Shown here: positions 10,011 through 10,374 of the stretch, in pieces
How positions within the stretch are numbered: position 1 is the first letter of the stretch
Layout of the letters: each line of letters begins with the position of its first letter
From: Octopus vulgaris
Lineage: Eukaryota
Direction: 5' to 3'
Assembly: GCA_951406725.2 (NCBI GenBank)
Contig: OX597817.1
Span: 29,016,001 to 29,080,000, forward strand
Length of the DNA: 64,000 nucleotides
Notes under the pieces: generated by a model
Databases searched by the model: none
What the model was told of the DNA's origin: nothing
What the model saw: the letters and a program-made list of their open reading frames with translations, nothing else
Made by a program: the position numbers and the translations under genes

Positions 10011-10374
10011 TATACGACCACTATATCGCTCTACCACCGCTCATGTCTCTCTGAGACATTTAGAAATTCAATATTTCTAATTTCGGTGATCAGTAAATAA
10101 ATTTTACTGATAATATGATATATTTGCAAGGAGGTTGCAGTCATCTCAGCGAGTGAGGCAGGCTACACTGAGCTGACGACGAGCAATACACTTAGAAACA
10201 TATGTCTTCAGGTGCTTTGTCCCAGCTTGCGGGGGTGATTGCCTCCCCATTGCAAATATAAGGACACAGAAAATGTGTCAAAGCTGACAGGAGACGTCGA
10301 TGTTTCCTAGGGCTAAATGGCGGTGGTGTAATTCCCTTACGGGACTGTCACATTGAGTTGACAGTATACGACCA
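10011..10374 (+). mobile_element. Structured HHR-bearing short element (retrozyme-like), copy 1
   Basis: tatacgacca direct repeat at both ends (354-nt period); long hairpin 10119-10260 capped by an HHR; four 3' hairpins shared with 15378-15625. Confidence 0.65.
10166..10214 (+). ncRNA. Minimal type-I hammerhead ribozyme motif
   Basis: ctgag-CTGACGA-cgag caataca ctta-GAAAC-atat-GTC^-ttcag; helix I pairs, palindromic helix III loop, one helix II mismatch; predicted cut after C10206. Confidence 0.7.

Follow-up and report, generated by a model that had tools for sequence, protein, structure and literature searches.

The window, a 64,000-nt stretch of the Octopus vulgaris genome (assembly GCA_951406725.2, contig OX597817.1, positions 29,016,001 to 29,080,000), contains one full copy of a 354-nt unit on the plus strand (10011-10364), which shares 96% identity with the majority sequence of 31 copies. 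The unit is followed by the start of a next one (10365-10386), which, according to the sequence and the end statistics of the family, runs to the fixed short 3' end at unit position ~16. The 10-mer tatacgacca was confirmed at both of its positions (10011-10020 and 10365-10374). The preliminary description placed the end of the element at 10374; however, the second unit is interrupted there by a 7-nt insert (10375-10381) and resumes to ~10386. The insert looks like a fold-back of 10357-10364, from which it may have arisen. TA runs flank the copy on both sides, in agreement with the (TA)n setting described earlier. The target duplication is AAAT(AT)n, at 10000-10014 and 10386-10400, and not the 10-nt repeat that had been considered for this role; the left copy has a 13-nt exact match with the right copy, which together with a TA run extends over 10386-10403. 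At its 5' end, the unit is truncated within the TA target. This truncation happens to fall close to the unit junction, where the TATA of the unit overlaps the TA target.

Several further features were placed on the plus strand of the copy. A 55-nt segment (10027-10081), termed the tail, separates the short family end (unit 16) from the long one (unit 71). Motif-distance counts identified ATCAGT at 10089-10094 as a candidate snRNA-type promoter element, with a putative transcription start near 10143-10147. A long imperfect stem (10118-10260), seen in the fold and in covariation, is capped by a minimal type I hammerhead (10167-10212), assigned by its core letters and covariation. The site at which sister copies carry an ORF1-only LINE (10143-10175) is empty. 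The copy is 1.05 units long, with a single hammerhead, and differs from the family majority at 13 positions, three of which are within the hammerhead stems (10167, 10172 and 10193). It is likely an ordinary dead daughter, given the one hammerhead and its weakened stems, and on its own it cannot release a circle.

The hammerhead comprises stem I (10167-10172 with 10207-10212, six pairs), the core CUGACGA (10173-10179), an extra base (10180), stem II (10181-10183 with 10191-10193, three pairs), another extra base (10194) before GAAA (10195-10198), and GUC (10204-10206), with the cut predicted after 10206. The palindrome ACATATGT is present at 10198-10205. Across the family the core reads CUGAYGA, and a two-pair helix III lies within this palindrome. 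Rfam returned no hammerhead match for the window element, either at the gathering score or at E up to 10, and the hammerhead call therefore rests on sequence and covariation. The fold of the 364 nt had an energy of −133.1 kcal/mol, compared with −92.0 ± 5.3 in 100 shuffles (z −7.8). In this fold, 10118-10148 pairs with 10232-10260, the hammerhead is at the apex and four hairpins follow downstream, as previously described. The element had also been called rod-shaped, but the rod accounts for only ~145 nt; folded as a circle (z −9.0, 40 shuffles), the unit forms one long arm and a many-branched head.

Changes on both sides of a pair were found in 14 of 40 pairs across 16 copies from three subfamilies, including three of the six in stem I and two of the three in stem II. 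Slid controls dropped to 34-49% pairing. The covariation score was reached by none of 500 shuffles, in a test that is inflated by kinship among the sequences. Together, the fold and the covarying stems show that the predicted structure is real. Helix III was a perfect palindrome in at least 93 of 143 distinct contexts, in eight different sequences, and could self-pair using wobbles in 18 more. Its retention through eight forms points to selection for cleavage and fits the dimer model of such hammerheads, as set out in the accessible parts of PMC4209133 and PMC6765202. The predicted active monomer fold was +0.5 kcal/mol for the window copy, compared with −4.8 kcal/mol for the family majority. 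Variant hammerheads were seen elsewhere: a sister subfamily (L119, L130 and others) has a CCGAUGA core with U..U flanking stem II, and more distant subfamilies have UUGAUAA. The GAAACATATGTC end also recurs in many other hammerhead families (L094-L111), and in several of these stem II is flanked by C..A. Eighteen other loci with a hammerhead pattern did not belong to the family of the unit, had no linked intact Penelope-like frame, and were akin to it only in the core.

The family has a period of 354 nt, with units head to tail, no coding middle and no LTR, and a type I hammerhead in each unit (core letters, covarying stems I and II). Besides the window copy, 40 of 2539 candidates were scored, all near full length with 91-95% identity. 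Exact junction 20-mers occurred 153 times in the genome, and a 29-mer of a sister subfamily 558 times; the genome carries at least hundreds of unit copies, plus sister subfamilies of like layout. The tatacgacca redundancy is the start of the following unit, and was internal at all 153 junctions, a point raised in the preliminary description. Sequencing contigs from four runs, three of them presumed RNA, all contained the unit junction; their depth was far higher at the two ends of the unit than at the hammerhead, contigs being of a kind from which ends, strand and circles are not resolvable.

An earlier count of ends (47 of 52 loci with matches, eight duplicates of 60 having been dropped) was skewed toward copies holding the hammerhead. 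The count was therefore repeated on 60 of the 153 loci, chosen solely by the junction 20-mer among the first 100 listed, leaving aside those already in use. The 3' ends of the 89 pieces fell at unit 8-18 in 38 and at unit 66-74 in 38, with 13 elsewhere; the two fixed ends are thus ~55 nt apart, and the 5' starts were scattered across the whole unit. Both orientations were present at 26 of the 60 loci. These back-to-back copies paired one short with one long end in 20 cases and never two like ends, with six unclassifiable. Short or long ends passed directly into a TA run in 42 of 76 cases, and the position of each end is blurred over a few bases owing to microhomology with TA. Targets were TA-rich at 35 of 47 loci. 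Several copies had non-simple target duplications of their own, 8-12 nt long; a non-simple match of at least 7 nt was found at 7 of the 47 loci, compared with a mean of 1.1 and a maximum of 5 in 200 shuffled pairings.

Copies reached 740 nt, 11 of the 89 pieces exceeded one unit, and loci of 1.6-2.1 units were found. Two exact cores of the window's subfamily were present at three loci, and two complete hammerheads also at L013; among 68 motif pairs, three successive motifs were seen at only two loci. Partial tandems, 5' truncation, an inverted 5' copy and the tail all occur in the family. Its copies are dispersed by retrotransposition, with target duplications longer than 4 nt. The earlier assignment to the non-LTR retrozymes is upheld by this non-coding, hammerhead-bearing, retrotransposed unit, and from its sequence the family is very probably of this class, with self-cleavage and circular RNA predicted. 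One contig also carries two complex insertions that are near mirror images of each other, separated by 260 nt (L015/L020, 659-2105).

The genome contains an abundant and young autonomous Penelope-like element with an intact ORF of 1312 aa, a C-terminal GIY-YIG domain and a CX4CxxC linker. Pfam gave no family for this protein, even at E 1; its Atlas neighbours were HTH_animal/GIY-YIG/RVT_1 proteins at 0.96-0.97. The linker motif, rather than a tree, suggests placement in the Neptune/Nematis type. Across 34 loci, some of which overlap, the copies of this element end at 221-222 (20 copies) or at 272-281 (24 copies, 19 of them at 278), an offset of 56 nt, and its back-to-back copies combine the two kinds of end. 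In an older family of the same clade, read by eye, 18 of 30 ends were short and 12 were long. The sole control, another abundant Penelope-like family, had a single end in 30 of 30. The two ends of the autonomous element lie in codons 7-8 and ~27 of its ORF, and in its own hammerhead (L091, 1205-1245, minus strand) A9 is replaced by C and helix III lacks the palindrome.

According to the accessible text of PMC11167929, a Penelope-like protein cuts both strands in vitro and starts at two internal RNA sites, the distance between which defines the tail. By analogy, the two tail ends of the unit would be reverse-transcription start sites. The accessible part of 10.1101/2021.04.23.441226 describes an insertion anatomy of Penelope-like elements as in the unit copies. 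Taken together, the copies strongly suggest mobilisation of the Penelope type, and the end pattern makes this particular clade the likely agent, the clade being named rather than a family. The best match between the unit and the 1312-aa element was 13 nt (E 0.16), inside the ORF, and no kinship to terminal repeats was found in the two families of the clade that were compared. As no sequence is common to both, the link between the unit and its partner rests on end geometry. The intact partner family is the younger of the two, its copies being ~99% alike compared with 95% within the subfamily of the unit, and this age mismatch counts against the link. No RT/GIY-YIG ORF was linked to the unit at the loci examined.

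In the best explanation, to which we assign a probability of about 0.6, the window element is a slightly decayed, protein-less retrozyme, likely copied by this Penelope-like clade and probably from circular RNA. Transcription of a rare locus with more than two units would begin near unit position 133, driven by an internal promoter of the snRNA type. Two hammerheads are predicted to pair via the palindromic helix III and to cleave the RNA behind unit position 196, giving a 354-nt piece that would then close into a circle. The Penelope-like RT/GIY-YIG protein, a putative agent for an observed pattern, would nick both strands of a TA-rich target, with DNA synthesis beginning inside the RNA at unit position 16 for one strand and 71 for the other. 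Synthesis halts at scattered points, often past one unit, as the truncated, partial-tandem and back-to-back copies show. The promoter is situated upstream of the site where synthesis starts and would be regained in the new copy by going round the circle.

A circular template is also proposed for retrozymes in the accessible text of PMC7229834, and the distribution of 5' ends makes it fairly probable here. If cut linear monomers were copied, 5' ends should pile up at unit 197; none of the 89 pieces began at unit 194-200, and 31 of 76 read through the cut site. Copying of primary transcripts should likewise pile up 5' ends at the transcription start; the putative start was passed by 20 pieces, with none beginning at unit 129-137. 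These absent pile-ups and the scarcity of multi-unit sources favour a circle as the simplest account. Junction reads are not decisive for this point because a circle junction and a genomic tandem have identical letters.

An unlikely alternative, but one with some weight, is that the same element is moved by the same kind of enzyme from the uncut linear RNA of a few multi-unit loci, with template jumps restoring the tandems and the hammerhead serving another step. Read-through of the cut site is equally compatible with such a template, and the accessible part of PMC11167929 reports that uncut RNA was the main in vitro substrate, that insertion in vitro did not depend on hammerhead cleavage, and that no read ended at the cut. 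In the accessible part of 10.64898/2026.07.22.740005, eight of nine Xenopus retrozyme dimers failed to cleave. Loci of 1.6-2.1 units and one tandem of about three units with LINEs inside could provide such RNA, and assemblies may collapse arrays, so that linear multi-unit sources could be hidden. Yet sources of at least three units are almost lacking, copies reach 740 nt, and the 5' ends do not accumulate at the putative transcription start. The helix III palindrome, with the selection for cleavage that it suggests, also speaks against uncut RNA.

It is very improbable that the copies are truncated ends of an autonomous Penelope-like element, with the unit as its terminal repeat. The insertion anatomy is identical, and a preprint derives vertebrate retrozymes from such repeats (10.64898/2026.07.22.740005, accessible part). 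However, past the long end the unit continues into itself rather than into an ORF; what precedes it is a further unit, host DNA or a LINE bearing a separate target duplication, with no shared RT frame; and it resembles neither of the two partner-clade families compared. Least credible, and barely worth entertaining, is the way in which the preliminary description had read the terminal redundancy, as the mark of a circular monomer opened at random or as a 10-nt target duplication around a fixed element. The window copy does consist of one unit plus 10 nt, but 3' ends occur at two fixed sites, the 10-mer lies within the unit, and other copies have target duplications of their own. That description had held fixed ends with variable target duplications to count against a circular monomer; the 3' ends are indeed fixed and variable duplications exist, whereas the 5' ends are scattered truncations.

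The LINE found inside units of sister copies is 1.6 kb long, with a frame of 450-463 aa and target duplications of 9-20 nt. The frame contains a zinc knuckle below the Pfam cut-off, with CCHC/ZCCHC3-like neighbours at 0.90-0.93, and no RT match was found for this LINE in 24 loci. Its 3' motif had 48 exact matches, followed by the unit in 28, distant hammerhead units in 4 (by eye), the target plus another LINE in 5, and other DNA in 11. The LINE was immediately ahead of the hammerhead at 37 of the 48 sites; three of these 48 were discovery loci, the motif having been taken from such copies, and three labels were reassigned on visual inspection, with L190 and L177 becoming other and L267 becoming nested. 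At 27 sites the hammerhead core began 21-38 nt downstream of the LINE. The more distant LINE subfamilies stack upon themselves instead, and head-to-tail stacks of ORF1-only LINEs with a period of ~1.8 kb were seen at L225, L227, L229, L230 and L234. L228 (1760-9900) holds a tandem of units, each filled by one or two LINEs, with a period of ~4 kb, and in L160 (5870-8350) both arms of a back-to-back copy carry the LINE end. Such composites of unit and LINE may themselves be moved by the Penelope-like enzyme. The long upstream element was considered as the autonomous parent of the unit and rejected, each copy having its own target duplication and no RT.

A U-snRNA-type start at the LINE site is a lead that comes from a short motif. 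TCAGT was found at −56 to −60 in 17 of 20 U2 loci. Counted from the LINE site, YCAGT was at −53 to −57 in five of nine unit loci, at −64 and −66 in two, and absent in two. A weight matrix from unaligned U2 upstream regions missed the motif of the unit, which was found only by the motif-distance count. In two of the 20 U2 loci (L378 and L385), an apparent LINE 3' end immediately precedes the first U2 base.

The accessible text of PMC7229834 describes metazoan non-LTR retrozymes of 350-390 bp in mussel and of about 330 and 350 nt in axolotl, so that retrozymes of such size are already known in molluscs. The octopus unit resembles them in its ~350-nt non-coding length, GC below 50%, type I hammerhead, strong predicted self-pairing, head-to-tail units, target duplications longer than 4 nt and co-occurrence with Penelope-like elements. 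Unlike those described there, its copies are nearly all sub-dimer, truncated and scattered, stem II has three pairs with an extra base on each side, kinship to the terminal repeat of the partner is not detectable, and expression as circles is a prediction. A tandem of two or more complete hammerheads, given in the accessible part of 10.64898/2026.07.22.740005 as the criterion for an active copy, is absent in the window copy and present at the three exact-core loci and L013.

Partial tandems, an inverted 5' copy, a tail between two fixed ends, TA targeting and a hammerhead upstream of the start sites are shared with endonuclease-bearing Penelope-like elements of the Neptune/Nematis type (10.1101/2021.04.23.441226) and with Anolis Poseidon (PMC11167929), as far as the accessible texts describe them. 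Unlike these, the octopus unit has no ORF, its tail is ~55 nt compared with the 30-40 nt quoted elsewhere, and its short and long ends are strictly paired in back-to-back copies. With the minimal Penelope-like hammerheads covered by the accessible part of PMC4209133, it shares an extra base between positions 9 and 10.1, G10.1-C11.1 and a short palindromic helix III suited to dimers; it differs in a stem II shorter than their 7-8 pairs, a further base between 11.1 and G12, and C for U4 in the sister subfamily. The LINE resembles half-L1 and the target-specific Tx1-clade LINEs (Tx1 in Tx1D, Keno in U2, Tx1-Mar), which the accessible text of PMC4494074 reports inside other repeats, in its ORF1-type protein, zinc knuckle, polyA signal, target duplication of 9-20 nt and target within another repeat. 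It differs in that the target is a hammerhead repeat and the copies examined carry no RT.

The prior basis for Penelope-like enzymes moving animal retrozymes was co-occurrence and, in frogs, shared terminal repeats. What is new is that the insertion ends would name a clade and give exact RNA positions, 16 and 71, on a 354-nt substrate. This geometry makes a standing mechanistic question testable, and bears on the rebuilding of tandems and the role of the hammerhead in Penelope-like elements. Our literature search, with Repbase, Dfam, supplements and subscription papers, which may already contain the family, outside its scope, returned no report of retrozymes in cephalopods, of a match between retrozyme ends and a Penelope-like clade, or of LINEs that target retrozymes; the octopus repeat annotation (PMC13282606) mentions neither hammerhead nor retrozyme in the accessible part of its main text. 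A wider view, which we advance tentatively and hold to be somewhat doubtful, is a three-tier parasite system. A sequence-unrelated RNA circle would mimic the two-site start signal of one Penelope clade, be copied into the two strands of a TA target from start positions separated by 55 nt, and regain its snRNA-type promoter by rolling past; the ORF1-only LINE, with the unit as its landing pad, would take the promoter over.

Elsewhere in the window, a decayed Penelope-like element of the partner clade, with ~44% protein identity and an inverted piece, was found at 5849-7593, and an older piece of the unit family, 88 nt long and with 76% identity, at 15490-15577. A second tandem repeat (21436-22349) is GC-rich, with a period of 350 and 2.6 copies that are 93% alike; it is preceded by a 62-nt repeat and has no hammerhead pattern and no Rfam match. 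On the minus strand, 18271-18327 gave a tRNA-like match barely over the Rfam cut-off, and is probably a SINE head or a pseudogene.
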